A DNA stretch of 17,832 nt from Nitrospinales bacterium (GCA_046757665.1 JBHHYO010000055.1:1-17832), one strand, 5' to 3'; counted from the stretch's first letter, positions 2,834 to 17,832 are shown. Made by a program: numbers and translations. The notes: generated by a model not told the origin, from the sequence alone.

Positions 2834-2843
2834 GAACACCGCG

Positions 2844-5102
2844 ATGAGAGAAAAACTCCAGACAGATTGCGCCCGGCACGGCGCATCCGGCTCCCTGGTC
2901 TGGATAGCGCTTGCGGCCTTGGTCCTGGCGGTGTTTGCCGTGAATGGGTTGTGGGTGACTTTGGACACCCGCCCGCCGCACTGGGACGCGGCGGCCCATC
3001 TCCGCATTGCGTCAAAGTATCTCCATGTTCTGACCTCGCCCGCAAGCCGGTGGGTGGACCTGCTTGATGTGGAATCCTATTACCCGCCCTTGTACCACCT
3101 CAGCCTGGCTCCGTTTTTGGCCTGGTTCGGGCCTTACGCCGACCGTGCGGTGTGGGTCAACGGATTGTATTTGTCGGTGATTATTGTTTCGACCTTCGGC
3201 ATCGGGCGGACACTGTTCGGTTGGGAAACCGGGTTGGCGGCGGCGTTCTTCATAGCCTGCTATCCGTATCTGGCCTATATTTCGCGCACCTGCATGATTG
3301 ATACGGCGCTGACCGCCTGTGTTTCCTTGTCCTATTACTGCTTTATCCGTTCGAGAAATTTCGAGGACACCCGGTTTGCTTTCTGCTTCAGCGTCATGCT
3401 TGGCCTGGGGATGCTGGTGAAATGGACCTTTCTCTTTTTCCTGGCGCCCGCGGTTCTGATCGGACTTTTTTCCGGCGGCGAGGCGAGTTGGCGGCGCGCC
3501 GCGTTACGGGTTCGATGGGCAAATCTTCTCATGGTATTGGGCATCCCGGTTTTGCTGTGCTTTCCCTGGTACGCGCACAATCTGGTGAAGCTGGTGAAAT
3601 CGGCAACCAAGTTCTCCGGGGCGGGAACTTTGGAAGGAGACCCTACCCAGGGCTGGGACCTTTGGCTGTATTACTTCCGAATTGCCGAAACACAAACGGG
3701 GCTTGGATTATTTCTGTTGTTTCTCGTTGCCGGGGGATTCTTCCTGACGTGCAGAAGATTTTTTAACCCGGCGCTGTCTGCCTGGATCGTTATTCCTTAT
3801 GTAATTTTTTCCTTGATCAATAACAAGGATGAACGGTATACCCTGCCGCTTCTTCCTGCCGTGGCGGTGATCTCGGCGCGGGTTATTTTTCTCGTTGAGA
3901 GAGCCGCGGTTCGCAATGTGTTGTTGGCGTTGACCCTTGCCATGGGCTTGTTGACCTGGGGGTTGAGCGGGTTTTCCCATCATGCCTGGGCGCGTTGGCA
4001 GTTGCCGGTTCTCGGCGAGGTCCGTCCGATCGACTTGTGGCCGCCGGTAAGGGAACATTGGCCGATTGAGCAAGCGCTGAAAGATATGGTCGCAGAGTCC
4101 GGCTCCGGAAAAGGCAACCCCATTAGCGTTCGCACGTTGACCAATCATCCCTCGTTTCACCGCGGAGCGTTTTGGGAGGTCGTTCAAGCCGAGGATTTGC
4201 CGGTCGAATTAAAAATCGTCAAAAATAATTTGGGAGAACTGACCGATTTTTTCATCACCCGGGAAGGCGGCAAATCGTTTGCGAGTTCAGGCGCGGCGGG
4301 TAAGATAAATCGTCTGAAAAACGATCCGGCGCTGACTCGGACGTTTCCGGTGTTCCGCGAGTATCCCTTGCCGGACGGTAGCCGGGGCGTGGTTTATGGA
4401 TTCAAGGTCCGCCCGGCGACCCGCCTGGCCGGCGTGAATGACTTGGCAGAGGTGGCCGAACGCTTGCGGCTGGCGTTTGCAAAATATCCAGGCTATGGGA
4501 TTTCTCAAGGAAAAAATTTGCGGCTGACTGTTCTTCCCACCGGCAACCCCGACGACCTTTCTCTCGGGCGGTATCGGAGCATTACGATCACCGCCGATTC
4601 CGCCGTGATCGACAAGATTCTTTTCCACGACCTGCGGCTGGCGCTGGAGGAGGTGCAGATCAATCTGTACGAACTTTTTTTGCACGACCGGCTGATTTTT
4701 TTCAAAATCGGCCGCTTGACTCCCCGGTTAACGCTACGCTTTGAGGACGTGGAAAAAAGGATTGCCGGCAAACTGCGGCAACCTTTCCGGCTCGACGGCG
4801 AGGACAACGCCGTTCGCGCTAGGCTGGAACTTGCCTCGCCGACGGGTCCCCTTGTAGTGGAGGCCCGGGTGCGCCTGGATTTTCGGGCCGGGCAATCCAT
4901 CCGTCCGATTGTGGACTTCATTCGAGTCGGGCCGATTACCGTGCCGAGGATTTTTTACCGGGTGTTTCTGAACCAGGAATTGCGTTTGACACCCACTCCC
5001 GGCTGGCCGCTTGCCACGGATATCCGTTCGGTTGAAATTCTGCCCCGGCAATTGCGGATCAATTCCGCCACACCTACCCCAGCAGTTCGCGTAACCCATT
5101 AA
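2844..5102 (+). CDS. GT-C (ArnT/PMT-like) glycosyltransferase with C-terminal LmeA/DUF2993-like domain
   Basis: PPHWDAAAH, YYPPLYH, GMLVKW, PWY..N and NKDERYTLPLLP motifs with multiple TM segments. The soluble beta-rich C-terminus (LGRYRSITITADS...LEEVQINLYELF) resembles DUF2993. Start at 2844 preferred over the overlapping 2808 but uncertain. Confidence 0.82.
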   Translation: MREKLQTDCARHGASGSLVWIALAALVLAVFAVNGLWVTLDTRPPHWDAAAHLRIASKYLHVLTSPASRWVDLLDVESYYPPLYHLSLAPFLAWFGPYADRAVWVNGLYLSVIIVSTFGIGRTLFGWETGLAAAFFIACYPYLAYISRTCMIDTALTACVSLSYYCFIRSRNFEDTRFAFCFSVMLGLGMLVKWTFLFFLAPAVLIGLFSGGEASWRRAALRVRWANLLMVLGIPVLLCFPWYAHNLVKLVKSATKFSGAGTLEGDPTQGWDLWLYYFRIAETQTGLGLFLLFLVAGGFFLTCRRFFNPALSAWIVIPYVIFSLINNKDERYTLPLLPAVAVISARVIFLVERAAVRNVLLALTLAMGLLTWGLSGFSHHAWARWQLPVLGEVRPIDLWPPVREHWPIEQALKDMVAESGSGKGNPISVRTLTNHPSFHRGAFWEVVQAEDLPVELKIVKNNLGELTDFFITREGGKSFASSGAAGKINRLKNDPALTRTFPVFREYPLPDGSRGVVYGFKVRPATRLAGVNDLAEVAERLRLAFAKYPGYGISQGKNLRLTVLPTGNPDDLSLGRYRSITITADSAVIDKILFHDLRLALEEVQINLYELFLHDRLIFFKIGRLTPRLTLRFEDVEKRIAGKLRQPFRLDGEDNAVRARLELASPTGPLVVEARVRLDFRAGQSIRPIVDFIRVGPITVPRIFYRVFLNQELRLTPTPGWPLATDIRSVEILPRQLRINSATPTPAVRVTH

Positions 5103-5202
5103 AAACAAAGTGGTAATTCCAGGCCCACCCTGCACGCCGTGCATTATATAGGGGGGTAATCACTCCGGCGCCCCCGGTTTGCGGATCTTTTTGGAGTTTG
5201 CC

Positions 5203-5670
5203 ATGCTCACGGTTACGCCTTTCAAGTTGGTCGTCGATCCTCGCGCAATGTTTTCCAAAGCGCTGAACACCCGCATGGGCCATTCAATTTTTGTGACGGG
5301 ATATCGCCGCCGGATGCGGCGCGGGTTGGGCGTGGACGCCGGCGGCAACCCGGCGCGCCACAAGCCGCTCCAAAAAAATGCGCGGCCGGGCACGGGCCGG
5401 AACCCTTCGATCCCGTTATTGGACACCGGGGAAATGGTCCGGTCGTTCCGTGTGAACCGGGCTCGTACCACCGACCGTCTGCTGGTCATGGACTTTCCCG
5501 CAAAGGAACGCCGGAAAGCGGTCACGCACCAGTTTGGCGACTCACGCAGAAATATTCCGGCAAGGCCGCACGTCGGCGCGTCGCGCCAGGACATGAAAAA
5601 CGCCGTTCGCTTTCTGAAAAATTTCTGGGCACAAAACTTTCGCAAGTTTATCCGAATAGAACGAGGTTGA
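5203..5670 (+). CDS. phage virion morphogenesis protein (P2 gpS / Mu gpG-like), 155 aa
   Basis: PLLDTGEMVRS and HQFG...IPARPHVG motifs, basic protein. RBS GGAG at 5193-5196 supports ATG 5203 rather than TTG 5179. Confidence 0.8.
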   Translation: MLTVTPFKLVVDPRAMFSKALNTRMGHSIFVTGYRRRMRRGLGVDAGGNPARHKPLQKNARPGTGRNPSIPLLDTGEMVRSFRVNRARTTDRLLVMDFPAKERRKAVTHQFGDSRRNIPARPHVGASRQDMKNAVRFLKNFWAQNFRKFIRIERG

Positions 5671-5675
5671 GCGAT

Positions 5676-6794
5676 ATGGAAAATGTTGTCGTCTTTGCTT
5701 ATAACAACCGGTCCGATACCCCCTCGCTGGCCGCGGACAACCAGACGCCCACGCTTCCGGTGGGCAACGTCCAGAACAAACAGAGGCGCGCCGTCTGGCG
5801 CACGACGGATACCGGAGGAACCGCGGGTCATTATGTCATTGTGCCCTTCGACGCGGATGAATTTGTCGAAGGATTTTTCATGACGAACCACAATTTGTCC
5901 GTGAACGCAACGTACCGGATTCGCGGAGTAACACAAACGGTGACCGGGGGGACAATTGCCCTTACCGCCACCAGTAGCGCCGTCTCGAAGGCCGGCGGCC
6001 CGGCCTGGACATCCCGGATGGATGGAACGGATCTGTTATACGGAACCGGCGCGAACGTCAAGGTCGCAAAAATTCAAGCGGTGACGGGGCCGGATGCCCT
6101 GACGCTGGCGGCGCCCGCCCCCGTTTCTTTCACCGGCACCGACTATTTCGTTCTGGATTTTGAAAACGCTTACGACCCGGTTAATTTTCCGGAAGGCTAT
6201 CGGTTTGACAGCGGCATCATCGAGGTTTGGAAATCCCTGTGGGGCGCGGGAGAGGACCGAGCGGGTTTCCATGGCGCCAGCGGGGTCCCGCAGTCGGATG
6301 ATCTGCAATTCATCCGGCCCATTGATATGACCCTGTTCGCGGCAAGCCAGGAGTTCCGGTTTTGGAAGCTTCATTGGTTCGACCAGAATAATTCCGACGG
6401 ATACCTTGAGGTGGGTCGGATTTTTCTGGGTCCCGTGTTCCGTCCCAGCCGCAACTTTTCCGCCGATTTCCGCATTCGCCCCTTTAGCGACCCGTCGAGA
6501 AAGGAAGACTCCATGGGCCAGGTGACACATTCCGACGAAAAACAAAAATTCGGCCAAATTCAGTTGAATTTTGAAGGGGTGGATTCCTCGGAAGCCCAGG
6601 CGGAGTTTGCTCATATGCAAAATGTTGTGGGATTGACCAAGGATTTTTTTATAAGCCTGGAGCCGGACCAGAACGTCTCCAACTGGTTCTTCACCACTTT
6701 TTATGGACGGCTTGCCCGGCAGATGGTTTTCGCCACCAGCCACATCAACAAGACATTGCGCGACATCAACCTGGATTTCCGGGAAAGTTTATAA
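5676..6794 (+). CDS. putative phage tail-tip (distal-tail-like) protein, 372 aa
   Basis: HNLS..ATYRI, FRFWKL...D..NSDGYLEVGRIFLG...PSRNF....DPS pattern recalled from siphophage minor tail proteins. RBS GAGGT at 5663-5667 precedes ATG 5676. Confidence 0.6.
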   Translation: MENVVVFAYNNRSDTPSLAADNQTPTLPVGNVQNKQRRAVWRTTDTGGTAGHYVIVPFDADEFVEGFFMTNHNLSVNATYRIRGVTQTVTGGTIALTATSSAVSKAGGPAWTSRMDGTDLLYGTGANVKVAKIQAVTGPDALTLAAPAPVSFTGTDYFVLDFENAYDPVNFPEGYRFDSGIIEVWKSLWGAGEDRAGFHGASGVPQSDDLQFIRPIDMTLFAASQEFRFWKLHWFDQNNSDGYLEVGRIFLGPVFRPSRNFSADFRIRPFSDPSRKEDSMGQVTHSDEKQKFGQIQLNFEGVDSSEAQAEFAHMQNVVGLTKDFFISLEPDQNVSNWFFTTFYGRLARQMVFATSHINKTLRDINLDFRESL

Positions 6795-6826
6795 ACCTCG
6801 GCCACCGGCCAGAGCGGTAATGCAAC

Positions 6827-8524
6827 ATGCCCGATATTCTTACATACAGTCAACTGATTAACGAAACCGATTCGGAGAAGGTCTATCTTGCGGAAATCGA
6901 ACCGGCCTCGCACATGTCCGGATGGGCTCTGGCTTCGGGCCAGCTGAATACCTATTGGATTGCCGTTGAGCCCGGCATGGTGGTTTCCCGGTTAAAGGAA
7001 GAAAAAACTTTTCTCGGCGCTCAATCCGATATCTCCGCCGTGGAGGCCAGCCCCGGTTCCTGGTATTTCGATCCGATCGGTGAACTGCTGTACGCGCACA
7101 CTACGGATTCCGCCGCCCCGGACACGCATTACATGACGGCGTATTTTCTGGAAGTGTTCGGCACTCATCCGCGAATTTTTAACAACCGGTACTATCAACC
7201 GAAAATCGCCCGCATCCCGGAGTTCCGCCAAAGTATCAATGAAAAGAAATCGGGGAACACCATTCAATCCAGCGGCAGTCTGACTCTGCTGGAAGACAGC
7301 GGCAGTCCTTACTGGAGTGAGAAGCTGTACAAATACAATTGGCTGAACAAACCGGTGACCATCAAACTGGGCGGCGCTCACAAGGATTACCCGTTCTCCG
7401 AGTTCAAAACCGTGGCGAAATGGATTCTCAAGGGCAACACGTACTCGGATACCGGAGTGGATTTTGAGGTCGCCGACCTGAAAAGCCTTTTTAGAACACG
7501 TATTGGATTGATCCAATATGATTTGGCGACCTATCCCAACATGGACCCCTCCGCCGAGGGGAAAACCGTGCAGATTGCCTTTGGCCAAATTACCAATGGC
7601 CGCGCCGTGCGGATCGATTCCACCATCGGGGTTGGCGGCAAATGGAAACTGTCTCTGTTGGCCCTCGATTCAATCTCCGCCGTTTACGACGACGGCGTGT
7701 CTGTTTCCTTTACGCCGGACCTCGCCAACGGGGAGTTTACCTTGAACGCCGTGCCGCAAGGACAAATCACGGCGGATTTCAACGGACTGAAAGACGGCGG
7801 TGTCTGGCTCCGGAAAGGCGGGGAAATCTCCAAATATATTCTGCTCAATTTTCTTCCCCTCACGGCGAGCGATATTATCGCGGCGGATTTCAATGCCCTG
7901 GATACGGCGCGCAATTATACGCTGGGAATTTACGTCGAAAGGGTAACCCGGATCGACGAAATTTTTTCCCTTATTGAAAATTCCAACCACTGTTTTTTTT
8001 TCACCGACCGGGAGTCCGGGAAAATTCGGGCGCAGGTGTTCGCGGACCCGAATGCCGCGGACCCCAATCGCGTTCAATTGAGTGATGAAAACCTGTTCAA
8101 GTTTGAAATAGCAACCGACGAAAATGTGGCTCCAGAAATCAGCGTGTCGTACGGCAGGGATTTTTCCTCTGGAGAAATGAAGCTCTTCCGGCAATTTGAT
8201 TTGAATTCAGCTTACATCAACGACAGCGAGGAAGGCAAAAACATCGAAACCTTTCTTGTCAATAAAACCGATGCCCAATCGCTGGCCGGTCTGCTTTTGC
8301 CGTTTCACAGCAGGCCGCGGCTTCTGGCAAAGGCCGAAACGCATATCCGGCCGCTGGACCGAAATCTCCACGACAACATTGAAGTGAACCGGAACCAACG
8401 ACCCGATTTTCAGGACCAACAATTTGTTTACAGGCTGACCGGATTGAGGGAAAAAGCCGCCAAAAATAAAAAACGGGTCATCTTGACCTTATTGAAAAAT
8501 CTGCAACCGGGTGAGACCGGATAA
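6827..8524 (+). CDS. putative phage tail hub/minor tail protein, 565 aa
   Basis: Long ORF between the distal-tail-like gene and the fibre. The YPN.DP.AEGK...IAFG and VYDDGV....DLANGEFTL...P.GQITAD..G patterns resemble tail hub proteins. Function is inferred. Confidence 0.6.
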   Translation: MPDILTYSQLINETDSEKVYLAEIEPASHMSGWALASGQLNTYWIAVEPGMVVSRLKEEKTFLGAQSDISAVEASPGSWYFDPIGELLYAHTTDSAAPDTHYMTAYFLEVFGTHPRIFNNRYYQPKIARIPEFRQSINEKKSGNTIQSSGSLTLLEDSGSPYWSEKLYKYNWLNKPVTIKLGGAHKDYPFSEFKTVAKWILKGNTYSDTGVDFEVADLKSLFRTRIGLIQYDLATYPNMDPSAEGKTVQIAFGQITNGRAVRIDSTIGVGGKWKLSLLALDSISAVYDDGVSVSFTPDLANGEFTLNAVPQGQITADFNGLKDGGVWLRKGGEISKYILLNFLPLTASDIIAADFNALDTARNYTLGIYVERVTRIDEIFSLIENSNHCFFFTDRESGKIRAQVFADPNAADPNRVQLSDENLFKFEIATDENVAPEISVSYGRDFSSGEMKLFRQFDLNSAYINDSEEGKNIETFLVNKTDAQSLAGLLLPFHSRPRLLAKAETHIRPLDRNLHDNIEVNRNQRPDFQDQQFVYRLTGLREKAAKNKKRVILTLLKNLQPGETG

Positions 8525-8555
8525 TTTCTTTCGGTTTGCACCGGGGCGAGATTTG

Positions 8556-8578
8556 AAACCGGGAGCGGCCGGTTTTTT
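8556..8578 (+). terminator. intrinsic-terminator-like hairpin directly before the tail fibre RBS
   Basis: AAACCGG-gagcgg-CCGGTTT with a T6 run (8573-8578), then GGAGG at 8581-8585. Confidence 0.5.
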
Positions 8579-8591
8579 ATGGAGGGAAAAT

Positions 8592-10970
8592 ATGAGTTTT
8601 TTCGATTATTTGACTTATCAGTGGACGAAGGGGGAGAAGAACTGGCATATCCCCTACAACAACGCGCTCCAGGCGCTGAAGGATTTCCTCGGCGACAAGG
8701 GAACCAATACTGACCTGGGCGGCGGGCTGACTTCCGTACAGACCGAGGTGACGAACGCCCGGAGCGGCGCGGCGGATTTGCAAGCGCGCATTGATCCGAT
8801 TGCCAGTGAGCAGGTGGCGGCGCGCGGCACTACGGCAAACCTGTCAACGCGCCTGGCGCAGGTGATCAATCCGGATGGCACGCCGACCGCCGGGGCGTCG
8901 GTCGCCGTTGAATTCAAGGCTTCCGGCGACACGCCGGCTTTCGTTTCCTCGACCTCGTTTAAAATTCCGACGGACAAAACGGCGGTCTATGTCAAGAACC
9001 GCAAAGTCAAGTTGACGCTGAACGGTGGCGACGTGGTGGCCGCCATTGTTAGTTCATCATTCGCCAACCCGGATACCACGGTGGTCGTGGACGTGGCGGT
9101 GATCGACAACACCATTTCCGCCGTGGCCTATGGTATCGACACTCCGGCGTCGGCGCCGAAAAATCCGCAGGTTGATATCAACACGGACATGGCGTTCCGC
9201 CTCGCGGAGCAACAGTCCATAGATAATGGGCAAGCCTTGCTGATGGAGATCGCCTGGGCGGATTCGTTCCCGGTGGCCGACGGCATCGGCGCGGATGAGG
9301 CGGCATCCGTCGGATTCGCCTATGACATGGTGTCCAAGTTTTACAAGGGAATCGACGGCGGCGTGGGTTTCAATGTCGATTTTCCATTCACCACCGAATC
9401 CGATTACCTGCAAAAGGATTTTACAAACGCCAATCAATCTACGTCGCAGGCGACGTTTACCAACGCCAGCGCGACGGTCACCCTTTCCAGCGGCTCCTGG
9501 CCGACGAATGCGGCCAATATGCGAATCACGCCCGATGGCGGTACAACGTGGTTCGGTATTTTAAGCCGCGATTCGGCGACGCAGATTACTCTCGATACGA
9601 ATTTCACAGGCACCACCGGCCCGAAAGATTACATCATCCGGCCCACGGAGTTTGTGGGCGGCAAGGTGCGGTTGAATGAACGCGGCTCTGGCTTTACGGC
9701 GGATTTGACGAGTGGGAAAACGGCGACCAGCAATTTTTCAAGTGGTGTCGCCGCGGATGTTATCAACGACGTTACGAATACACTCGGTGTCTGGAACAAT
9801 CCCGGCAGTACAGGCCAATGGACGCTCGATTTTGGCGCGGGTGTAACGAAAATCATAACTCAATACACCATCATCGGATGGGATGCTAATACCGCCAGTG
9901 GATTCGCGCCGAAAGACTGGAAGTTGCAAGGTTCAAATGATGGAACAAATTTTACAGATATCGACACGCAAACCGGCGCGCCCGCCTGGACGGCCGACGA
10001 AAAGCGCACATACAATTCGTTCACAAACACTACCGGGTACAGGTATTACAGATTCGATATAACAGCCTCGCAAGGCGGATCAGCGCTGACATTGCACGAA
10101 ATCGAGTTGATGGAAAGTGAGGTTTTCAATCCTGTCAACGAGCCTGCGGTGGTCATTCCGGTGTTCAGTCAATTGAAGAACGCGGCGAGCGTAATCGATA
10201 TCAATTCATTTACAACCGCATCGGCCGCCAACCAGCAGTTTGTGAAACATGCGTTCATTTTTGGAACGAATGGAATGACCAGCTACAACAACACAAACAC
10301 GCTGGTTGCGGCGTTCAACTCGACCGGTGGTGTTTGGAAAAAGGTTGTCCGGTGGGATGGAGCCAAGTGGCAAAGAAACAGCGACACAACAAATACGAAC
10401 GCCGAGACATGGGTTGATTCAACCGGTGCGGGTGCGACGGATATTGTCCACGCAATTTCCGAGGCCATTGATCTCAACACGGCAGTCAGCATGACCGGTG
10501 GCGACGTGAATGGCATCACCGACGCGGAGTTTGAAATGTCGGGCGGATTTGTTCCCGGGACGCACACCTGGTTTGGTTTCGTAATGTATTTAAAATCCAT
10601 GAACAATATTCAAAATCCTGAGGTCAGTCTGGCGCGAGTCAATTGGGACACGGATCGGGCGGCGATGGATTTGCGCTCCAAAACATTCGATCCGGGCGCG
10701 GTGCCGGCGACGGCCTATGTCTGGGCGTTGCAGGAGTATTCGGCGGGCGACGGGCCGGGCGTGTTCCAGGTCAGCCGCGACGGCGGCGCAACCTGGACAA
10801 CCATCACGCTGGCCCAGCAGGGCAGTCCGATCAGCGGCAATATCCGGGTGATGCGCGGCACGCTGGATTTTACGACCGAACCGGCGGCGCAGGATTTGCG
10901 GGTGCGGTATCAAACCACACAGGGGCGGGATCAATTCCTGCACGCCTGGGGATTGCAGGCGCGGCAGTAA
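8592..10970 (+). CDS. tail fibre / receptor-binding protein with discoidin (F5/8 type C-like) domain, 792 aa
   Basis: N-terminal EVTNAR...L..R repeats typical of fibre anchors, Thr/Gly/Ser-rich beta modules, APKDWKLQGSNDGTNFTDID...YRYYRFDIT...EIEL discoidin signature, SRDGGATW Asp-box. RBS GGAGG at 8581 supports ATG 8592. Confidence 0.8.
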   Translation: MSFFDYLTYQWTKGEKNWHIPYNNALQALKDFLGDKGTNTDLGGGLTSVQTEVTNARSGAADLQARIDPIASEQVAARGTTANLSTRLAQVINPDGTPTAGASVAVEFKASGDTPAFVSSTSFKIPTDKTAVYVKNRKVKLTLNGGDVVAAIVSSSFANPDTTVVVDVAVIDNTISAVAYGIDTPASAPKNPQVDINTDMAFRLAEQQSIDNGQALLMEIAWADSFPVADGIGADEAASVGFAYDMVSKFYKGIDGGVGFNVDFPFTTESDYLQKDFTNANQSTSQATFTNASATVTLSSGSWPTNAANMRITPDGGTTWFGILSRDSATQITLDTNFTGTTGPKDYIIRPTEFVGGKVRLNERGSGFTADLTSGKTATSNFSSGVAADVINDVTNTLGVWNNPGSTGQWTLDFGAGVTKIITQYTIIGWDANTASGFAPKDWKLQGSNDGTNFTDIDTQTGAPAWTADEKRTYNSFTNTTGYRYYRFDITASQGGSALTLHEIELMESEVFNPVNEPAVVIPVFSQLKNAASVIDINSFTTASAANQQFVKHAFIFGTNGMTSYNNTNTLVAAFNSTGGVWKKVVRWDGAKWQRNSDTTNTNAETWVDSTGAGATDIVHAISEAIDLNTAVSMTGGDVNGITDAEFEMSGGFVPGTHTWFGFVMYLKSMNNIQNPEVSLARVNWDTDRAAMDLRSKTFDPGAVPATAYVWALQEYSAGDGPGVFQVSRDGGATWTTITLAQQGSPISGNIRVMRGTLDFTTEPAAQDLRVRYQTTQGRDQFLHAWGLQARQ

Positions 10971-10977
10971 ATCAAAT

Positions 10978-11075
10978 GTCATCGCGAGCCGCCACCGGCG
11001 GCGTGGCGATCCAGTCGGGCCGCGCCCGGTGGGAACTTTCTGGATTGCTTCGTCGGCTGAGCCTCCTGCAATGAC
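10978..11075. repeat. REP-like palindromic element of the GTCATTGCGAG...CTCGCAATGAC type
   Basis: Terminal inverted repeats GTCATCGC / GCAATGAC, inner inverted repeats GCGATCCAG (11006-11014) / CTGGATTGC (11040-11048), plus three small internal hairpins. Confidence 0.75.
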
Positions 11076-11092
11076 GATCATAGGGAGATTTT

Positions 11093-11335
11093 ATGAGCCA
11101 GATAACCGAATTCAAACACAATAAAGAACGCAACCGTAAGGAGCGCGAAAAAAAGGACAAGGAGGAACGGTTCCGGCGGAAGTTCCCCGGCAAGGCGGCG
11201 GTGGAGGCGCGGATCGCGTCGGCCATTGATTCCGCGAAAAACCTGTCGGGCTTGAAAACCGTCATCAAGCAGGTCCTGAACGGCGACAAGGACACGCCGG
11301 GAATTATCGACGCGCTGTTTGAACTGGACAGGTAA
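11093..11335 (+). CDS. hypothetical protein, 80 aa (highly charged, helical)
   Basis: RBS GGGAG at 11083-11087. Fills the gap between fibre and portal on the same strand. Confidence 0.7.
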   Translation: MSQITEFKHNKERNRKEREKKDKEERFRRKFPGKAAVEARIASAIDSAKNLSGLKTVIKQVLNGDKDTPGIIDALFELDR

Positions 11336-11362
11336 AAGCATGTTTTCTTACTGGAGAAAATT

Positions 11363-12898
11363 ATGGCAGATCAAGAAATACAACTTCCTTATTTTTTAAC
11401 GAAACACGCCAAGTACGACGAAATTGTCGACAAGCAAAACCTGTTTATCGACATGGTGACCGGTGAAGGAGGATTCGCCGACGGGTCCATATTGGAGCGT
11501 TACGAGAACGAGCGCGACGACACTTATGAAGACCGCCGCAAACTGGCGGTTTACCGTTACTATCCGGCGACGTTCCGCAAAATTTACGTGTCCTATCTGC
11601 ACAAGAAAAACCCGACGCGCCGGCTGTCCTCCCATGCCCGTAAGCAGGACGTGTTTGCGCGCATCATGGACTGGTTCGACAACGGTACAGTGGATTTGGC
11701 CGGAAGAAAGATGAATCAGTTCATGAAGCGCATAGCTTCCAAAACATATGTCCGCGGCAAATACCTGATCGGCGTGGATATGCCGAGGGGAGCCGCCGAC
11801 AACCTGGAAGAGATGGAACGCAAAAAACTGTTCCCCTACCTTACGGCCTATTGCCCGTCCACGGTATGGAACTGGGAGAAAGATCATCTGGGAAAATACA
11901 ACTGGATAACCCTGCGCCTGGAGAAAACAGGATTTGATATGGAAACGGGGCCTCCCGATGAACCGGAATACCAATACGTCGTGTGGACTTCTGATGAATG
12001 GTTCGAGTATGAAATCGACAAGACGGGCTACCGTCTGGTTGACCGGGCCGTGCACAATTTGGGAAAAGTGCCTTTCGTTGATTTTATGTTCGAAGAACAC
12101 GAAAACGACTCTGACAAGGGTTTGAGTCTCCTGAAACCCATTGAGGGGACCATCCGGGCGATTTACCGGCTGTTGAGCGATGCCGGGATGGCGGTCAAGT
12201 TTTACGTTTTTCCCCTGCTGTGCCTGCCTTCCGGGCAGGGCGGCGTGGAGGTGGAGCTGGGTCCGAAAAACGTGCTCTTCTACAACGCCGAAATGGGCGG
12301 CAAACCTTTTACCCTGGTGTTTGACCTGGAAGGCTTGCGGCAGATCGACGAGGAACTTCGCCATCACATTCGTTATATGTACAACGCGCTGAGCCTGATT
12401 TCCGAAAATCAAACCGCGGTCCGCGAAGCCGCCGATACGTTGAAGGAAAAGCGCGCTGACATTAAAAATATCCTCGCCGAACACGCCGATCAGGAAGAGC
12501 AGACGGAATTTAAAATCCTCGAAATCGTCCTGCGCTGGTTGTTCCGGGTCCGCGGCGAGGATGGTGTGCCGCGCGTCGATGAAGACAAGGTGGAGCAATT
12601 CCTCGATGCGGTTTCCATCGACTACCCCGACGAGTTCGATGTCAAGTCGTTTGAGGACCAATTCAATGAAGGGTTCCTGTTGATCAACGGCATCGATTCG
12701 CCGGTTCTTGCCGGGGAAATCGAGGAGCGGCTGGTGCGCAAGTATTTCCCCAATTTGTCCAATGACAAAATGGAGGAGATCGTTCAGGAAATCCGGGAGA
12801 ACATTAAGCGCAAACTCGTCAACCCGCAACCCGGCGCGCGAAGTTCGTCCGAAGCCCCCCGGGTACGCGGCGAACTTCACCCGGTACGGGAGACCTGA
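11363..12898 (+). CDS. phage portal protein (SPP1 gp6 / DUF4055-like)
   Basis: LERYENE..DTYEDR...A.Y N-terminal motif, PYLTAY.P..V.NW, HNLGKVPFV and IDYPDEFDV. Typical size of 511 aa, RBS GGAG. Confidence 0.85.
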   Translation: MADQEIQLPYFLTKHAKYDEIVDKQNLFIDMVTGEGGFADGSILERYENERDDTYEDRRKLAVYRYYPATFRKIYVSYLHKKNPTRRLSSHARKQDVFARIMDWFDNGTVDLAGRKMNQFMKRIASKTYVRGKYLIGVDMPRGAADNLEEMERKKLFPYLTAYCPSTVWNWEKDHLGKYNWITLRLEKTGFDMETGPPDEPEYQYVVWTSDEWFEYEIDKTGYRLVDRAVHNLGKVPFVDFMFEEHENDSDKGLSLLKPIEGTIRAIYRLLSDAGMAVKFYVFPLLCLPSGQGGVEVELGPKNVLFYNAEMGGKPFTLVFDLEGLRQIDEELRHHIRYMYNALSLISENQTAVREAADTLKEKRADIKNILAEHADQEEQTEFKILEIVLRWLFRVRGEDGVPRVDEDKVEQFLDAVSIDYPDEFDVKSFEDQFNEGFLLINGIDSPVLAGEIEERLVRKYFPNLSNDKMEEIVQEIRENIKRKLVNPQPGARSSSEAPRVRGELHPVRET

Positions 12899-12901
12899 GC
12901 C

Positions 12902-13348
12902 ATGCACGCGCCCATTGTGTTTGATTGTTCCGAGACGTTGACGCGGTGTTTCTGGTCGGCGGTGCTGGCTTTTGCGCTTCACCTGATTCGAGCGCATTCC
13001 GACCCGCTGTACTGGCTTGTGCTGGGTCTTTACAGTTTGGATTTCCTGTTTGGGCTGAGTCTCGCCGTTGTCCGGGAGCGGTTTTGCCCCGACAAGTTCA
13101 AGGCCGGGCTCAAAAAGTTCCTGGGGTATCTTTTGCTGATCCTGCCTCTGCTTTTGACGGATCATTTTCTGGCGGGAAACCGGCAGGAAGCGGTTTATGG
13201 TTATTTCAAAAACTGGTGCCTGTTGTATATGAGCATGATCGAGCTGGTTTCCATTGGTATGCACTTGCGGGAGATGGGGGTTCCCATTCCTTCTTTGGCG
13301 GATTTGAAGAAGTTTCGCGGCCTGTTGCGGGAAAACCTTCGCCGCTAA
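12902..13348 (+). CDS. phage holin (Phage_holin_4 / phi29-type family)
   Basis: Three to four hydrophobic segments with D..FG, G.KK and E..SI...L..MGVPIP motifs and a basic C-terminus. Confidence 0.75.
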   Translation: MHAPIVFDCSETLTRCFWSAVLAFALHLIRAHSDPLYWLVLGLYSLDFLFGLSLAVVRERFCPDKFKAGLKKFLGYLLLILPLLLTDHFLAGNRQEAVYGYFKNWCLLYMSMIELVSIGMHLREMGVPIPSLADLKKFRGLLRENLRR

Positions 13349-13407
13349 TCACGAGCAAAATTTATAAAACAGGCAACGGCGCCTGGGCGCTTTGCCTTTA
13401 TCAACCG

Positions 13408-13442
13408 ATATCCGGAGCCGGACGGCTACCGGATATTTTTTT
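13408..13442 (+). terminator. intrinsic-terminator-like hairpin directly before the scaffold RBS
   Basis: ATATCCGG-AGCC-ggac-GGCT-a-CCGGATAT with a T7 run (13436-13442), then GGAGGAG at 13443-13449. Confidence 0.6.
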
Positions 13443-13455
13443 GGAGGAGTACGGC

Positions 13456-14238
13456 ATGACCGAACGATTGGAAAGCTCTGGAGAGAGCGCTTCGACCCCG
13501 GGACCGGGGGCCGACTCAAACCTGATTTCACGCGACGAATTTCACAAGGTGGTATCGCAACGTGACCGGATAAAGGAAGAACTGCGCGCCATCCGCGGTT
13601 TGCTTGAGGAAGCCGATCAGACTAACCGGCAACTTCATTCCCAGCTCGAAGAGGAGATGCAGAATAAAAATCTCACCGAAAAGCAGAGCCGGGAACTGGA
13701 GATCAAGCTTCAGCAATTCGAGAACAAACATCTTGTGGAGAAGGAGCAACTGGAAGAGAAGTTCCGGGCGGCGCAGGAAAAGTTAAAGGAGACCGAGGGC
13801 GAGCTTTCGGGTTTTCAACGGGAAAAAATGCTGGCCCAGCAGGAGCGCGCGTTTATGCAAGCGGCGCGGCGGGCTTCCTATTCCCATGAAAACGCCGAGA
13901 CGCTTCTTGGTTATCTTCGCGGCCAGGGCCGGTTGCGGTCGGTTCCCATCAGTGGCGACGGCGCTCCGGAGGGAGCCTGCCAGCATGAGGTGGAATGCGA
14001 GGTGCCGCGAAAGGATGGGTCCGGTTACGAAAAACAGATGTTGCCGTTCGATGAAGCTCTGCCGTATCTCAAGCAGGAAAAGAAAAATCTGGCGCCCGCC
14101 ATGGCTTCGGGCGGCGGCCGCGGCTCCAGGGGATCCGACGGCCCCGTCCGCCCGGGCGTCCTGAATCGCAAAACATTGACGCTGGAGCAGTACAAGGCCG
14201 GACGCAACCCCGTGACCGGCCAGGTCCTGGTCCAATAA
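13456..14238 (+). CDS. putative capsid scaffolding protein, 260 aa
   Basis: Long E/K/Q-rich coiled coil and a Gly/Ser-rich tail (ASGGGRGSRG) directly upstream of the coat gene. Strong RBS GGAGGAG before ATG 13456. Confidence 0.75.
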   Translation: MTERLESSGESASTPGPGADSNLISRDEFHKVVSQRDRIKEELRAIRGLLEEADQTNRQLHSQLEEEMQNKNLTEKQSRELEIKLQQFENKHLVEKEQLEEKFRAAQEKLKETEGELSGFQREKMLAQQERAFMQAARRASYSHENAETLLGYLRGQGRLRSVPISGDGAPEGACQHEVECEVPRKDGSGYEKQMLPFDEALPYLKQEKKNLAPAMASGGGRGSRGSDGPVRPGVLNRKTLTLEQYKAGRNPVTGQVLVQ

Positions 14239-14263
14239 CGTCTTTAACGAAGGAGATTTTGAA

Positions 14264-15145
14264 ATGGCAAATGTCTTAGGTCCCATGGACCCTGAATTTT
14301 GGGCGATGGAAAGTTTGATCGCCCTGGAAAACAATCTGGTGATGGCCAATCTGGTGCATCGCGATTTTGAAAACATGGTCGCCCAGAAGGGCGACACCGT
14401 CAACACCCGCCAGCCGCAAACCTTTGTCGCCAACGACATGGGGGCAACGGTCACCATCCAGGATTTGGCTCCCACCAACGTTCAAATCGTTTTGAACCGG
14501 TGGAAAGAGGTCACCTTTGTCCTTGGCGACAAGGAGCAGGCGTTTTCGGTGAACAACCTGGTGGAGGAATACATTCAGCCCGCCATGTACGCTCTGGCGG
14601 ATCAAATCGACCGCGACTTGTGCGCGTTATACACCGACCTGACCACCTCCGTGGGCACGGCGGGCGTCGATTTGGTCGCAAACACCGTGGTGGATGCGCG
14701 CAAGGCGCTGAATGGACAAAAAGCTCCCGTCGACCGCCGCAACCTCGTTCTCAGTTCCAAGGACGAGGCGGCACTTCTAAAGGAAGACAAGTTCACTTCC
14801 GCCGAACGGATCGGCGACGACGGCACGGCGCTGAAGGAAGCCTCGCTGGGGCGGCGCTACGGACTCGGTTTGTTCATGGACCAGAACATCGTGTCCGCGG
14901 GCTCGGCCCCCGTGACGACTTACAACATGGCCTTTCATCGAAACGCCTTTGCCCTGGTCATGCGTCCGCTGAATCGCAACAGCAGTTTTCCCGGTGCGCA
15001 GGTGTCGGTGGTGGATTACAAGGGCCTCGGCCTGCGTTCCGCCGTCTGGTATGAAGGCAAGGAAAAGGCGGTCTATGTGTCCATCGACGCGCTCTATGGC
15101 GTCAAGACGCTGAACCCGAGCCTGGGCGTTCAGGTTCTGGGTTGA
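14264..15145 (+). CDS. major capsid protein, P22 coat (gp5)-like family, 293 aa
   Basis: MAN...E.L..LENNLVMANLVHRDF....KGDTV..R.P, YIQPAM.ALADQID, LG.RYG...MDQN, AFHRNAFALV.RPL and D.LYGVKTL.P motifs. RBS AAGGAG. Confidence 0.9.
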   Translation: MANVLGPMDPEFWAMESLIALENNLVMANLVHRDFENMVAQKGDTVNTRQPQTFVANDMGATVTIQDLAPTNVQIVLNRWKEVTFVLGDKEQAFSVNNLVEEYIQPAMYALADQIDRDLCALYTDLTTSVGTAGVDLVANTVVDARKALNGQKAPVDRRNLVLSSKDEAALLKEDKFTSAERIGDDGTALKEASLGRRYGLGLFMDQNIVSAGSAPVTTYNMAFHRNAFALVMRPLNRNSSFPGAQVSVVDYKGLGLRSAVWYEGKEKAVYVSIDALYGVKTLNPSLGVQVLG

Positions 15146-15152
15146 TCGGCAA

Positions 15153-15184
15153 ACGGCGGTCGGCGCCGGCAAGCCGGCCGCCGT
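15153..15184 (+). other. strong GC hairpin after the coat gene (mRNA stabiliser or weak terminator)
   Basis: ACGGCGGTCGGC / GCCGGCCGCCGT 12-bp stem with one G-U pair and an 8-nt loop, followed by a pyrimidine tract but no clean U run. Confidence 0.55.
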
Positions 15185-15217
15185 CCCCCTTCCCTCTTTA
15201 CTTTGGAAAGGAAAGCA

Positions 15218-15391
15218 ATGAATCGAATCAAGTCAGGAATCAAAACAACCGAATTTTGGACCACGGTGGTTGCCGGGGTGATCATGGTGTTCAATCAGGG
15301 ACTCGGCATCCAACTGCCCTCGGAGCAGATCATGTCGCTTGCGGGCGTCGTGATCGCCTACATTCTGGGAAGATCGATCGTTAAAAAATAA
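15218..15391 (+). CDS. small two-TM membrane protein, putative holin, 57 aa
   Basis: GIKTTEFW...two hydrophobic helices...YILGRSIVKK. Purine-rich RBS before ATG 15218. Confidence 0.65.
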   Translation: MNRIKSGIKTTEFWTTVVAGVIMVFNQGLGIQLPSEQIMSLAGVVIAYILGRSIVKK

Positions 15392-15405
15392 AGGAGCATT
15401 TTGAA

Positions 15406-15567
15406 ATGAAAACAAAACTTTTACTGGGTTTTTTGCTGGCGTTTGCCGTGACCGCCTGTAGCGCGGCCATTCAAGGGGTCAAGGTGAAAAAGGGAGAAAA
15501 AACATACGAGTTGGAAAAAGGAAACCTCGACCTCGGCAAAAAGAAAACGTCCGGGCCGAATTCCTGA
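15406..15567 (+). CDS. small lipoprotein, 53 aa (not in ORF track)
   Basis: MKTKLLLGFLLAFAVTA-C-SAAIQGVKVKKGEKTYELEKGNLDLGKKKTSGPNS with lipobox VTAC (Cys18). RBS AAGGAG at 15391-15396, stop TGA at 15565-15567. Confidence 0.75.
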   Translation: MKTKLLLGFLLAFAVTACSAAIQGVKVKKGEKTYELEKGNLDLGKKKTSGPNS

Positions 15568-15589
15568 TTCCTTTTGTGGCGCACACATT

Positions 15590-15799
15590 ATGAAAGTAAA
15601 AAATCAAGGTGGAATGGTTCTGCATGTTCCGGATGACTGGAGCGCCGAGGTTCTGCGGGAAAAGTCCCTGACCGCGCTTGCGAATTATGAGGACATGTCT
15701 TTGCAAGAGCTGAAGGCCCTGGCGCGCCGACGCAAAATTCGGATCGGCCGCTCCGGGAAAAAGAGACTCGCACAATTGCTCATGGAATCCGACGCCTGA
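15590..15799 (+). CDS. small protein with Rho-N/HeH-like helical module, 69 aa
   Basis: YEDMSLQELKALARRRKI...KKRLAQLL pattern. Such small genes commonly follow phage capsid genes. Confidence 0.6.
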   Translation: MKVKNQGGMVLHVPDDWSAEVLREKSLTALANYEDMSLQELKALARRRKIRIGRSGKKRLAQLLMESDA

Positions 15800-15882
15800 C
15801 ATCCCCGGAATCCTGTCCAAAACGCCCTTCCGCTCACCAGGGGAAAACCATTCCTTGCCAACCCATTTTTTCGGAGGCCTAC

Positions 15883-16332
15883 ATGACACGACTAATTTCC
15901 GCAACACGAAAAATAGCGGTGACCGACACCGACGGCAACCGGTATTCCATAATTTTTAAACTGCCCTCGCAGTCCAGGGTGCGCGCCATCCGCAAGGCCA
16001 GCCTCGGCCCCGACGGCAATCTCGACGGCGCCGGTTTCGCCGACAAAATGACCCGGGAAACGGTGGAACTTCTTTTGGAAGTGGAGGGCGCGCAAGCGGC
16101 CTTCGACGAAAACCCGGAACACGAAATGACGGTTTGCTCCGCCATGACGCAAGAGGAGATTCAAGGCGTGAAGGATTTTTATCGGCAAAACAACCTGGAA
16201 TATTATCCGGACGCGCCGGGCTGGAAGGCCGTGTTCATCACCCTGTTTGCCGATGTGTTTGAACGCGCCACCCTGGACCTGTGGAAAGGCAATTCGCAAA
16301 ACCGGCTGAACGAGGTGGGCGTGGGAAAGTGA
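15883..16332 (+). CDS. tail assembly chaperone (lambda gpG analogue), 149 aa
   Basis: RBS GGAGG, lies upstream of the tape-measure-like gene, and ends in the slippery heptamer G GGA AAG before TGA. Confidence 0.75.
   Translation: MTRLISATRKIAVTDTDGNRYSIIFKLPSQSRVRAIRKASLGPDGNLDGAGFADKMTRETVELLLEVEGAQAAFDENPEHEMTVCSAMTQEEIQGVKDFYRQNNLEYYPDAPGWKAVFITLFADVFERATLDLWKGNSQNRLNEVGVGK
16323..16329 (+). other. programmed -1 ribosomal frameshift site GGGAAAG
   Basis: In-frame G GGA AAG, identical to the lambda G/T slippery site. The -1 frame is open to TAG at 16697. Confidence 0.8.
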
Positions 16333-16697
16333 AGCGCGACATCCGCGCTCTCCTGGACGCACGGGTCTGTCGCATCGAACGGACCGCCTGTCCCATTCTC
16401 CTCGAAACCCGGCGGAAGTGGTGGGACCGGGCCTGCGCGGAATGCGAAATGACCCGCGCCGAGCAACTCCCGGAAATCGGCCCGTGGACCCTGCATGTCC
16501 TGCAACTGAAATTCGAGCTGGACGAATGTCGGATTCCCTACGGCGTCGATGACCTCTCGCCGGATGAATGGCATTACCTGGGGATTGTGTCGCGGGAAAT
16601 CAAAATTATCGAGTCCGAGCAAAGGCAAAAAGATGAAAGAATAAAGAGACAACTCCATCATCCTTCAACGAGGCCGGCCGAGCTTTCCATGCTTTAG
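16329..16697 (+). CDS. tail assembly chaperone C-terminal part (gpT analogue), expressed as a ~271 aa frameshift fusion or from GTG 16329
   Basis: -1 frame relative to 15883..16332 with a Cys-rich start (CRIERTAC...CAEC) followed by PEIGPW. Confidence 0.7.
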   Translation: MKRDIRALLDARVCRIERTACPILLETRRKWWDRACAECEMTRAEQLPEIGPWTLHVLQLKFELDECRIPYGVDDLSPDEWHYLGIVSREIKIIESEQRQKDERIKRQLHHPSTRPAELSML

Positions 16698-16713
16698 TAT
16701 ATTGTGCTAAAAT
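16685..16713 (+). promoter_or_regulatory. candidate sigma70 promoter for the inserted mini-gene
   Basis: TTCCAT (16685-16690), 17 nt spacer, TAAAAT (16708-16713) with extended TG at 16705-16706. Confidence 0.5.
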
Positions 16714-16763
16714 GAGAGTTCCGAATACCAAATTAATGGGGGCAGGCAAAAAAGGAGGATATC

Positions 16764-16946
16764 ATGAAAAAGTGGATGCTCGTGGTAGCGCTGGTGATTG
16801 GCATTTTGATCGGCTCGTTAGTCGGCAACCCCTTCAAGGGAGAGGCTGGGATTTTTAGTGAAATTGAGTTTGTAGGTCAAAGAAATTTATGTTTTGTGGT
16901 TTTTAGAGATTCGATTACCTTCGTGCAGAAAGGAAGATGTCCTTAA
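16764..16946 (+). CDS. small secreted/membrane protein, 60 aa (moron-like)
   Basis: Strong RBS AGGAGG, MKK plus hydrophobic signal-like helix, two Cys, AT-rich sequence. Confidence 0.65.
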   Translation: MKKWMLVVALVIGILIGSLVGNPFKGEAGIFSEIEFVGQRNLCFVVFRDSITFVQKGRCP

Positions 16947-17177
16947 TGAAATTTATAAAAATCGGTGGTGGATTCAACTCGCAAGTGCAACAGTTAATAA
17001 ACATTTCTTTTTGAAGAATAGCTCATAGGGTGGTTTAAAGCGCATAAACTCGGGGAAAGCGAGTGCATTCCTGTACATGGATTAGAAAGGAAGGCGTGTT
17101 GCGTCGACAATAGCTGACGGGGATATCAGGGTTTGTGAATTTTATTTAAATTGTGAAGGATTGATAATTTTTCACCC

Positions 17178-17211
17178 AAGGGAACGAAGCTTGACCTCTC
17201 GTTCCCTTTTT
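17178..17211 (+). terminator. intrinsic-terminator-like hairpin directly before the tape measure RBS
   Basis: AAGGGAACGA / TCGTTCCCTT perfect 10-bp stem with a T5 run (17207-17211), then AGAGG at 17216-17220. Confidence 0.65.
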
Positions 17212-17225
17212 CATTAGAGGCAGTT

Positions 17226-17832
17226 ATGAGAGAGATAAAAGCCGATCTGGCGGTGGGTCTGAAAGACGAAACATCCCAGGGTGTTACAGCTCTGCAGGAT
17301 AATTTAAAAAAGGCCTTGAATGAGGTCTTTAAAGCATTTGAGGAGGTGAATAAGGCCGCCGATGGGTCGGGAAAAGTCTCCAAAGAGGTATTGGAAGAGC
17401 TGGGCAAGGGTTTGGAAGACCTCGCGCAAGCATTTGAATCCAGTTCAAGGAAAATAACTGACATCAATCAGGAAACTTTTGTGGGTCTCGGCAGGACCTT
17501 CGAAGAACTGGAAGACACCTTCGTAAAAACCGCCAAAGCCTTCCCCAATACGTTTGTCGAAGGATTTGAGGAAAAGCTTAATGAAATAAATACCACTTTT
17601 GAAACCATAGAAAATTTTGGCAGAAGCACTGCCCGTGACCTCAATAAGGACTTCAACAGTTTTTTCAATAAAGGTTTTAAAACGGGCACGTTTTCCATGG
17701 GTGAGTTGTGGAAGGACGTTCTCAATAATATGAAGAACAACTTTTTCGATGCCTTGTCCGCGATGGCGGCGAGGCTAGCGACGTCGGCGATTTTCAAGGC
17801 GTTCCAGGGCGGCTTGAACGTTCTCGGTTTCA
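17226..17832 (+). CDS. tape-measure-like protein, N-terminal 202 aa (runs off window, not in ORF track)
   Basis: Open frame from ATG 17226: MREIKADLAVGLKDETSQGVTALQDNLKKALNEVFKAFEE...FKTGTFSMGELWKDVLNNMKNNFFDALSAMAARLATSAIF. Amphipathic helical, follows the chaperone pair, RBS AGAGG. Confidence 0.75.
   Translation, partial: MREIKADLAVGLKDETSQGVTALQDNLKKALNEVFKAFEEVNKAADGSGKVSKEVLEELGKGLEDLAQAFESSSRKITDINQETFVGLGRTFEELEDTFVKTAKAFPNTFVEGFEEKLNEINTTFETIENFGRSTARDLNKDFNSFFNKGFKTGTFSMGELWKDVLNNMKNNFFDALSAMAARLATSAIFKAFQGGLNVLGF

Follow-up and report, generated by a model that had tools for sequence, protein, structure and literature searches.

Is a cluster of tailed-phage head and tail genes that follows directly on host genes in a marine Nitrospinota chromosome a particle that the bacterium has made its own, or is it what recombination has left of a prophage? 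The question is raised by the window analyzed here, a stretch of 17,832 nucleotides (nt) from a Nitrospinales bacterium (GCA_046757665.1 JBHHYO010000055.1:1-17832), in which phage-like genes run from position 5203 to the last letter, 17832; together with their apparent continuation on neighboring contigs these genes are referred to as the island. An earlier note on this DNA had proposed a new gene transfer agent (GTA) or a domesticated phage particle, with a rearranged or degraded prophage as the alternative. The reading preferred here, with moderate confidence, is that the island is a non-autonomous, recombined, prophage-derived element, in other words a defective prophage stranded in the chromosome. 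The identities of the genes, the host flank, the single-copy depth, the selection on the portal gene and the absence from relatives are established. The window is the entire contig C55 of a Nitrospinota metagenome-assembled genome (MAG) of 2.97 Mb in 160 contigs (97.6% complete, smallest contig 1517 nt), and the absence of genes to its right therefore marks the end of a contig rather than the end of the element.

Host DNA occupies positions 1-5102 of the window. The first phage gene begins with an ATG at 5203, preceded by GGAG and 100 nt past the stop codon of a glycosyltransferase gene (5102), and from this point on every substantial open reading frame (ORF) is phage-like. The main ORFs from 1355 to 17832 all lie on the plus strand, and most starts in the phage cluster are preceded by GGAG-type ribosome-binding sites, so that gene content and order are as the earlier note described them: shuffled, co-oriented and apparently intact. 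The left host-phage junction is bridged by one 9700-nt Logan contig, covering positions 1-9662, in each of two sequencing runs. Depth is flat across all 30 bins except at repeats and equals that of the host flank (17.1 and 12.1 in the two runs, both from a hydrothermal-vent metagenome that is possibly the MAG's own source and hence not independent of the MAG data). Because host and phage DNA are joined in these contigs and depth is flat, the island is single-copy and integrated in the chromosome. Its tetranucleotide usage is host-like (r 0.970, 50th percentile of random host segments; the adjoining contig C125 lies at the 81st). No tRNA was found at either junction of the island, and a search for att-like repeats found no direct repeat of at least 11 nt linking the two junctions, the longest shared direct word being 10 nt.

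In searches of Pfam, PHROG and NCBIfam profiles, no ORF of C55, C125 or the start of C64 matched a terminase, integrase, repressor or replication family. An island without any of these genes would therefore be incapable of self-driven excision, replication or packaging, and in this sense is non-autonomous. These results, with the 10-nt limit on shared junction words, agree with the earlier note, which had reported no integrase, att-like repeat, repressor or replication gene and no terminase upstream of the portal. Elsewhere in the MAG, matches to the terminase families PF03237 and PF17289 are confined to C143, a 3.3-kb contig (L010, G000:C143:1-3348) in which terL (phrog_38, E 9e-119) is followed by a portal gene of another family, phrog_113, and for which there are no assembly-graph links. 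The families PF20441, PF04466 and PF05876 have no match in the whole MAG, and a PF03354 "terminase" on C21 was rejected as an HlyD membrane-fusion protein. Judging from its genes, C143 is a piece of another phage, and its different portal family led to its rejection as the missing part of the island. Tyrosine recombinases occur in the MAG on C11, C29 and C113 only. The last of these (7157 nt) encodes a P4-type integrase (a 409-amino-acid open frame), a 738-amino-acid primase/helicase-like ORF and small regulator-like ORFs. Its tetranucleotide usage lies at the 5.5th percentile of host segments, and it is probably a separate integrative element; it too was rejected as the missing part of the island, since its composition differs and no graph link connects them. 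Of the genes that the earlier note had expected to the right of the window or elsewhere, tube and endolysin are represented by weak matches on C125, but the sole terL is that on C143 beside the other portal.

The right end of the island lies beyond the window and was approached through overlaps between contigs. C55 and the reverse complement of C125, written rc(C125), share their terminal 55 nt; rc(C125) and rc(C64) share their opening 55 nt; and C84 overlaps the start of C55, also by 55 nt. The sole linear path consistent with these overlaps would run from C84 through C55, a repeat, rc(C125) and the repeat again to rc(C64), with the node that joins C55, C125 and C64 missing from the MAG. In both 55-mers, compatible frames encode the hydrophobic, glycine-rich sequence of a tape measure. 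In the 1249-residue tape measure of G001, a genome of the same family but another genus, the segments matching the two 55-mers are adjacent at residues 982-1030 and the C125 part aligns to residues 1007-1248; the missing node should therefore measure approximately 110-130 nt, with tape measure protein A reading through it in frame to a length of about 475 residues.

A hairpin in rc(C125) is followed by an ATG that opens a second copy of the tape-measure segment. In rc(C64) this copy matches the start of rc(C125) over 103 nt at 92% identity and then undergoes a frameshift, and the last 50 residues of the relic are collinear with the C-termini of tape measures, at no more than 30-35% identity. 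Host genes resume 85 nt past the relic with rimO/miaB, pfk, rpsB, tsf, pyrH, frr, uppS, cdsA, dxr and ispF. The 6-kb C125 block is thus bracketed by a direct repeat of approximately 170 nt of the hydrophobic tape-measure segment, and repeat and out-of-frame relic together have the appearance of a scar left by recombination between two tape-measure genes of related elements. It is at this right end, where a duplicated tape-measure segment is fused out of frame to a divergent C-terminus, that the rearranged prophage named as the alternative in the earlier note finds its support. The element measures approximately 18.9 kb (12,630 + 5,974 + 252 nt plus two short gaps), and the window holds the left two thirds of it.

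The order of genes within the island is unusual for a tailed phage, and the identity of the tail-tip gene is central to this point. The 565-residue product of positions 6827..8524 (plus strand; phrog_8917) has no Pfam match, and neither it nor the protein encoded directly upstream has a match in the Protein Data Bank (PDB) by sequence search. An AlphaFold2 (AF2) model built from a 33-sequence alignment (pLDDT 89.4) found its best Foldseek match in the T5 tail-tip chain 7zqp_b (E 3.4e-17, TMq 0.63), which we take to be the pb3 hub; 7zhj_b matched alike. Further matches, among 70 chains at E 0.001 or better, include proteins of DT57C, JBD30 and Chi, lambda J (8k35_A), RcGTA chain 6tba_8A, Mu gp44 (1wru), T4 gp27 and VgrG. 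On its predicted fold the protein is assigned with confidence to the baseplate hub class of siphophages (T5 pb3/lambda J). Given this fold match, a tail-tip gene does precede the portal, and the earlier note was correct in placing tail tip and fiber before the portal. It was also correct in calling the coat P22-like: the 293-residue major capsid protein (14264..15145, plus strand) has the P22-coat/HK97 fold (PF11651, E 1.8e-35; phrog_283, E 1.3e-64; PF25209, E 2.2e-6) and matches the PDB capsid protein 8zdh_A at E 3.1e-10.

A reference for the gene order is provided by a 24.4-kb cluster of G001 (C17:39638-64036; L048/L049/L052), which gives the canonical order for the lineage: homologs of the 139-residue protein, the tube-like protein (63% identity) and the 375-residue protein (54%), the chaperones G/GT, the 1249-residue tape measure, the hub (53%) and five tandem fiber paralogs. 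The fibers are 39-47% identical and the tape-measure C-terminus is 35% identical. The cluster contains no head gene, lysis gene or integrase, and neither portal nor coat was detected anywhere in the G001 genome (92% complete). It is flanked by adhesin/two-partner-secretion-like genes and a ribF-like gene, labels assigned by reading the sequences, and on its gene content is a candidate flexible-tail (F-type) tailocin. Compared with this cluster, the island appears as a circular permutation opened between tape measure and tail-completion gene.

On the preferred reading, a siphophage whose hub was T5-like and whose coat was of the P22 type gave rise to this chromosomal island. Its order would be ispE and the two glycosyltransferase genes; tail-completion, distal tail (Dit)-like, hub and fiber genes; a hairpin repeat; p80, portal, holin, scaffold, coat and small ORFs; then G/GT, tape measure A, an AAA ATPase, a possible endolysin, the 323-residue and 139-residue proteins and the tube-like protein; the relic; and finally rimO, pfk and rpsB. 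In the proposed course of events, the canonical order was cut open between tape measure and tail-completion gene, the head module came to follow the fiber, and a second block of chaperone, tape-measure, ATPase and lysin genes was inserted after the head genes, ahead of those for connector and tube. Two related elements would have recombined in the process. The island encodes a nearly full virion together with lysis functions; if expressed, its genes would be predicted to yield siphovirus-like particles that need a terminase from elsewhere.

Relatives of the island are scarce in the genomes of its host group. A search for the portal in 60 relatives, five from the host's family and 55 from its order, and in 119 other Nitrospinota species genomes found it in none, and the coat was likewise found in none of the five family members. 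The tube-like gene occurs in one of the 119 (G001), at a different locus. In the sister genus, close parts are present in one of five species (again G001, with tube and hub at 53-64% identity); G004 has a 27%-identical hub homolog alone, which we take to belong to another phage. The host genus is represented in the collection by a single genome, so that the nearest genomes compared are of another genus. Presence in most relatives, as expected by the earlier note for a GTA, was not observed (portal 0/119; tube 1/119 at another locus). For the locus itself, the available relatives offer little basis for comparison: GT2 has homologs in 2 of 25 (about 40-44% identity), the regions upstream of rimO in five relatives contain no match to ispE, the glycosyltransferase genes, the phage proteins, pfk, rpsB or tsf, and synteny around GT2 and rimO is not conserved in these genomes of another genus.

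Diverged relatives do occur in wider collections. Among 5.8 billion proteins, five relatives of the portal are 74-83% identical to it and lie on contigs of at most 4.1 kb, another is 24% identical, and the tube-like protein has relatives at 93, 82, 80, 71 and 63% and one at 38%. All contigs with relatives in other assemblies measure at most 6.3 kb, and a second Nitrospinales MAG has homologs of both portal and tube. IMG/VR contains no close relatives of portal or hub; a query with the coat found three loci at 40-44% identity that have no other gene in common with the island. A portal alignment search located one 24%-identical locus in genome_contigs and two at 22-24% in metagenome_contigs, all with an ORF layout that looks canonical, and the hub had no tblastn match in any phage record.

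Selection was measured on three genes (portal, p80 and the fiber C-terminus) by comparison with L039, a 1982-nt contig from another metagenome that carries the fiber C-terminus, p80 and the portal in this order, with the portal at 88% nucleotide identity. For p80 dN/dS is 0.24, and for the fiber C-terminus it is 0.29 (dS 0.96). The value for the portal is 0.056 at a dS of 0.55, well below 1 as the earlier note had anticipated.

How these results bear on the origin of the island can now be weighed. Several of them sit uneasily with a defective prophage and have to be counted against it. Strong purifying selection acts on the portal; decay would be expected of a dead remnant, but no gene of the window is visibly broken and its ORFs are open and tightly spaced; and the five tube homologs at 63-93% identity are all exactly 435 residues long. 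The adjacency of fiber, p80 and portal without an intervening terminase gene is common to the island and L039, and this odd order is therefore old and of no recent making. That it is just the non-structural genes which are missing at both ends is typical of domesticated elements and not of random deletion. Other points concern the reconstruction itself: a terminase gene may lie on an unbinned contig, the MAG being 97.6% complete in 160 contigs; the path to the right was drawn from shared 55-mers and homology, with no spanning read, and C125 could be a separate or tandem piece; and the assignment of the tube-like protein is weak, with an AF2 pLDDT of 39.6 and just the Ig-like insert (residues 174-251) folded. 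Many of the same observations would be accounted for by a domesticated, host-owned GTA-type system which draws on an outside terminase, releases particles through its own holin and lysin and packages fragments of host DNA smaller than the island, an explanation that we regard as possible but doubtful. Structural and lysis genes alone, bounded by host genes on both sides, with neither integrase, att site, repressor nor replication genes, are what such a system would retain. Its ORFs and a frameshift site are intact, the portal is constrained (dN/dS 0.056), composition is host-like, depth is that of a single copy, and the terminase-less junction of fiber and portal is old. Diverged full-length variants at 71-93% identity exist in other samples, the second Nitrospinales MAG has portal and tube homologs, and the tail-only cluster of G001 with its five fiber paralogs resembles domestication of the tailocin type within the same family. 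There is also a precedent: BhGTA is a 16.3-kb head-tail-lysis cluster without terL, a single copy of which lies elsewhere in the genome (PMC9662315). The distribution of the island nevertheless argues against host ownership, with the portal in 0/119 and the tube in 1/119 other Nitrospinota species genomes and any close part in 1/5 species of the sister genus, at another locus. The sole terL of the MAG adjoins a different portal and therefore belongs to another phage, the tape-measure relic and repeat indicate recent recombination, and purifying selection is equally expected in an active phage lineage. The GTA-like domestication proposed in the earlier note thus stands as far as host boundaries, host-like composition and portal selection are concerned, and fails on presence in relatives. 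A broader version, in which the island is a BhGTA-style GTA with an outside terminase and its G001 cousin a tailocin with five interchangeable fibers, both from an undescribed Nitrospinales lineage of host-kept particles, is rather unlikely.

It could also be argued that the island is part of an intact temperate phage of unusual gene order whose terminase, replication and lysogeny genes reside on unassembled or unbinned contigs, the host boundaries being an artifact of linking. The window does end inside a gene, at a repeat; the MAG is fragmented (160 contigs, minimum 1517 nt); the node between C55, C125 and C64 is missing; related contigs elsewhere do not exceed 6.3 kb; and the terL-plus-portal contig C143 and the integrase-primase island on C113 are unlinked in the MAG. 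However, independent Logan contigs of flat depth bridge the left host junction, rc(C64) opens with sequence derived from a tape measure that runs straight into rimO, and the halves of the repeat are adjacent in the G001 homolog and leave no room for a module between them. C143 carries its own portal of a different family, C113 differs in composition (5.5th percentile), and L039 likewise has no terminase upstream of its portal. An intact phage is thus given little credence. Less credible again, and very improbable, is a satellite-like element that has its own capsid, tail and lysis genes and relies for its terminase, and perhaps for replication, on another phage in the same cell, for example that of C143. 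A terL-bearing phage fragment is indeed present in the same MAG as an island without terminase, and related variants are diverse. The fiber C-terminus diverges faster than the portal (dS 0.96 versus 0.55), as expected under host-range selection on a transmissible entity. Satellites such as P4, phage-inducible chromosomal islands (PICI), capsid-forming PICI (cf-PICI) and PLE have an integrase and genes for replication, usually along with a small terminase or a redirecting factor, but none of these was matched in the island, which has no att repeat and whose flat depth gives no sign of amplification. The island moreover has a full tail set, and to our knowledge no satellite encodes a full tail.

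The defective prophage preferred here can be placed beside several known systems. BhGTA (VSH-1) of Brachyspira hyodysenteriae, a member of the Brachygtaviriformidae, is described as a cluster of head, non-contractile tail and lysis genes whose sole identifiable terL lies outside it, and which has homologs across the genus Brachyspira that co-diversify with the genus (PMC9662315). Compared by description, the island resembles it in being a chromosomal cluster of similar size (16.3 versus approximately 18.9 kb) without a terminase, but differs in that BhGTA is genus-wide whereas the island portal was found in 0/119 other Nitrospinota genomes. For BhGTA, experiments have demonstrated that particles are produced and that packaging is random, whereas the island is known from its genes alone. 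With RcGTA (Rhodogtaviriformidae), the island has in common an integrase-less and replication-less head-tail cluster and the hub fold (6tba_8A, Foldseek E 1.3e-8). The RcGTA cluster starts with terL, includes an HK97-type capsid with a protease and has the canonical order; the island lacks terL, has a P22-type coat and a scaffold, and places tail-tip genes before head genes. Its hub resembles the T5 tail tip (7zqp_b/7zhj_b, E about 4e-17, TMq 0.61-0.63), though sequence identity is just 8%, and T5-like phages are large and lytic. As in siphophages generally, G/GT chaperones with a slippery site are accompanied by a tape measure. The G001 cluster likewise has homologous tail genes, host genes on both sides and no integrase, but differs in its canonical order, 1249-residue tape measure, five fiber paralogs, lack of a detectable portal or coat, and locus. 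Unlike an F-type tailocin, the island has portal, scaffold and coat, with the portal under selection. Defective prophages of the PBSX type resemble it as resident, non-inducible-looking remnants with structural and lysis genes and recombination scars. PBSX keeps its terminase and regulators, and typical remnants lose genes haphazardly, whereas the island retains almost exactly the virion and lysis genes.

Nitrospinota are major nitrite oxidizers of the sea. A full-text literature search found no paper on a Nitrospinota prophage or GTA, as judged by titles and the openings of abstracts. With the island and its relatives comes a first concrete handle on phage-derived elements of this phylum: they offer a complete virion gene set, a fiber whose discoidin domain makes it a candidate for binding the receptor, and a cousin that has tail genes alone. 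As a stranded prophage, the island would still be useful as a marker for linking Nitrospinales to viruses in metagenomes. Should it instead prove to be kept by the host, GTA-like particles would have arisen independently once more, and a group that is uncultured and grows slowly would have a further way of exchanging genes; a lineage of such particles, hitherto undescribed, would be the first case of a GTA-like or tailocin system among nitrite-oxidizing Nitrospinota.

The host flank on the left comprises a tRNA-Gln that spans the overlap of C84 and C55 at the left end of the window, ispE on the minus strand, and two PMT_2 glycosyltransferases (GT1 and GT2), the second of which has an LmeA domain and ends at 5102. 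A role of GT1 and GT2 as conversion genes of the prophage was considered and rejected, as no evidence supported it. The first gene of the element (5203..5670, plus strand; a TTG at 5179 is also in open frame) encodes a 155-residue tail-completion protein of the Neck1 type (phrog_26, E 1.2e-7; PF05069, E 0.0018, and TIGR01635, E 1.4e-5, both below their cut-offs). It is followed at 5667..6794 (plus strand) by the gene for a 375-residue protein (phrog_8610, E 2.2e-26). The homolog in EBPR siphovirus 2 directly follows a 919-residue gene of tape-measure size, and that in the tail cluster of G001 lies between tube and chaperones; from gene position the protein is probably Dit-like. The family of the 565-residue hub comprises 1199 representative proteins at E 0.001 or better, and its longer members are fused to fn3, beta-helix, laminin-G or glycine-rich modules. 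The tail fiber or receptor-binding protein (8592..10970, plus strand) has 792 residues from the ATG at 8592, in an 819-residue ORF open from a GTG at 8511, and contains an F5/8 type C (discoidin) domain (PF00754, E 7.2e-7; phrog_17517 tail protein, E 1.1e-13). Its C-terminus is merely 68% identical in L039.

Between the fiber and p80 genes, at 10977..11081, lies a copy of a host hairpin repeat of approximately 108 nt that resembles miniature inverted-repeat transposable elements (MITE) or repetitive extragenic palindromic (REP) elements. It has 95 blastn matches in the MAG, 78 of them of at least 90 nt, has inverted termini, and its consensus folds at -57.8 kcal/mol; it matches no Rfam family and is missing from the homologous fiber-p80 spacer of L039. 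The presence of a host repeat within the island speaks for its residence in the chromosome. Summed depth reaches 4053 at 10996 against about 17 around it, in a spike from 10977 to 11067, and with a summed metagenome depth of approximately 4000 the repeat is abundant well beyond this genome. The charged, 80-residue p80 (11093..11335, plus strand) is encoded directly upstream of the portal, in the usual place of a terminase; it is kept in L039 at 70% amino acid identity and has no family match in Pfam, PHROG, NCBIfam or PADLOC. The portal (11363..12898, plus strand; 511 residues; phrog_145, E 5.7e-44) is 22-24% identical to annotated portals of phage records.

Between portal and scaffold, at 12902..13348 (plus strand), lies the gene for a 148-residue membrane protein identified as a holin (PF05105, E 8.4e-12, 45.7 bits against a cut-off of 22.2; TIGR01593 below cut-off). 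The next gene (13456..14238, plus strand, with GGAGGA before the start) encodes 260 residues from the ATG at 13456. The protein has no family match and is considered scaffolding-like from its position between portal and coat and its charged coiled-coil sequence. The coat that follows lacks an insertion of approximately 140 residues found at the same point in its 40-44%-identical IMG/VR relatives (L042-L044). Three small ORFs at 15203..15799 (plus strand) encode a 62-residue membrane protein with a weak holin-like match (phrog_9987, E 0.0098), a 53-residue predicted lipoprotein and a 69-residue protein. Genes of lysis type are thus situated inside the head module, namely the holin (12902-13348) and, after the coat, the small membrane protein and lipoprotein (15203-15567). 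This is a variable spot: in a relative from run X5, positions 15117-15590 are replaced by 861 other letters.

The tail assembly chaperones are encoded at 15883..16697 (plus strand), with G at 15883-16332 (149 residues) and GT continuing in the -1 frame to 16697 through a 138-residue ORF. A slippery heptamer, GGGAAAG, lies at 16323-16329 directly before the stop of the 149-residue ORF, as in the G/GT arrangement of lambda. The overlap of the two ORFs is an intact programmed -1 frameshift site and not a sign of decay, and the arrangement argues that the recoding signal is intact and that the downstream gene is a true tape measure. In G001 the chaperone homologs (33% and 55% identity) are located directly before the tape measure. 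Tape measure protein A starts at 17226 and runs off the contig end at 17832 (plus strand), so that its N-terminal 202 residues are encoded in the window; they match PHROGs 167, 2335 and 1272 at E 6e-6 to 1e-4 and align to residues 699-853 of the G001 tape measure, and a search with them found no full-length homolog.

The C-terminal part of the tape measure (269 residues) is encoded on rc(C125). Between it and the possible endolysin lies the gene for a 406-residue AAA+ ATPase of the AAA_16/ATPase_2 type (L004:3791-5011, minus strand of C125), with weak Orc1/Cdc6, STAND-type and SngB matches in NCBIfam and PADLOC and no clear PADLOC match. The possible endolysin has 179 residues and a weak endolysin match in PHROG (E 2.9e-4), and a PDB search returned nothing meaningful. 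The remaining products of rc(C125) are a 323-residue viral protein, for which an SU10-adaptor role is merely a lead from Atlas, a 139-residue protein, and the 435-residue tube-like protein with its Ig-like insert (PF18906, E 8.2e-4; phrog_290, E 2.1e-4), for which a PDB sequence search gave Ig-domain noise alone.

Scans of the island for Rfam families, promoters, terminators and repeats were uninformative. The AT-rich gap of 530 nt (GC 0.44) between chaperones and tape measure contains an ORF for a 60-residue membrane protein (16764..16946, plus strand). A second short repeat lies in this gap at 16983-17041, where summed depth rises to 172 at 16997 against about 18 around it, and partial copies of this repeat are present at the start of C51 and on C19.

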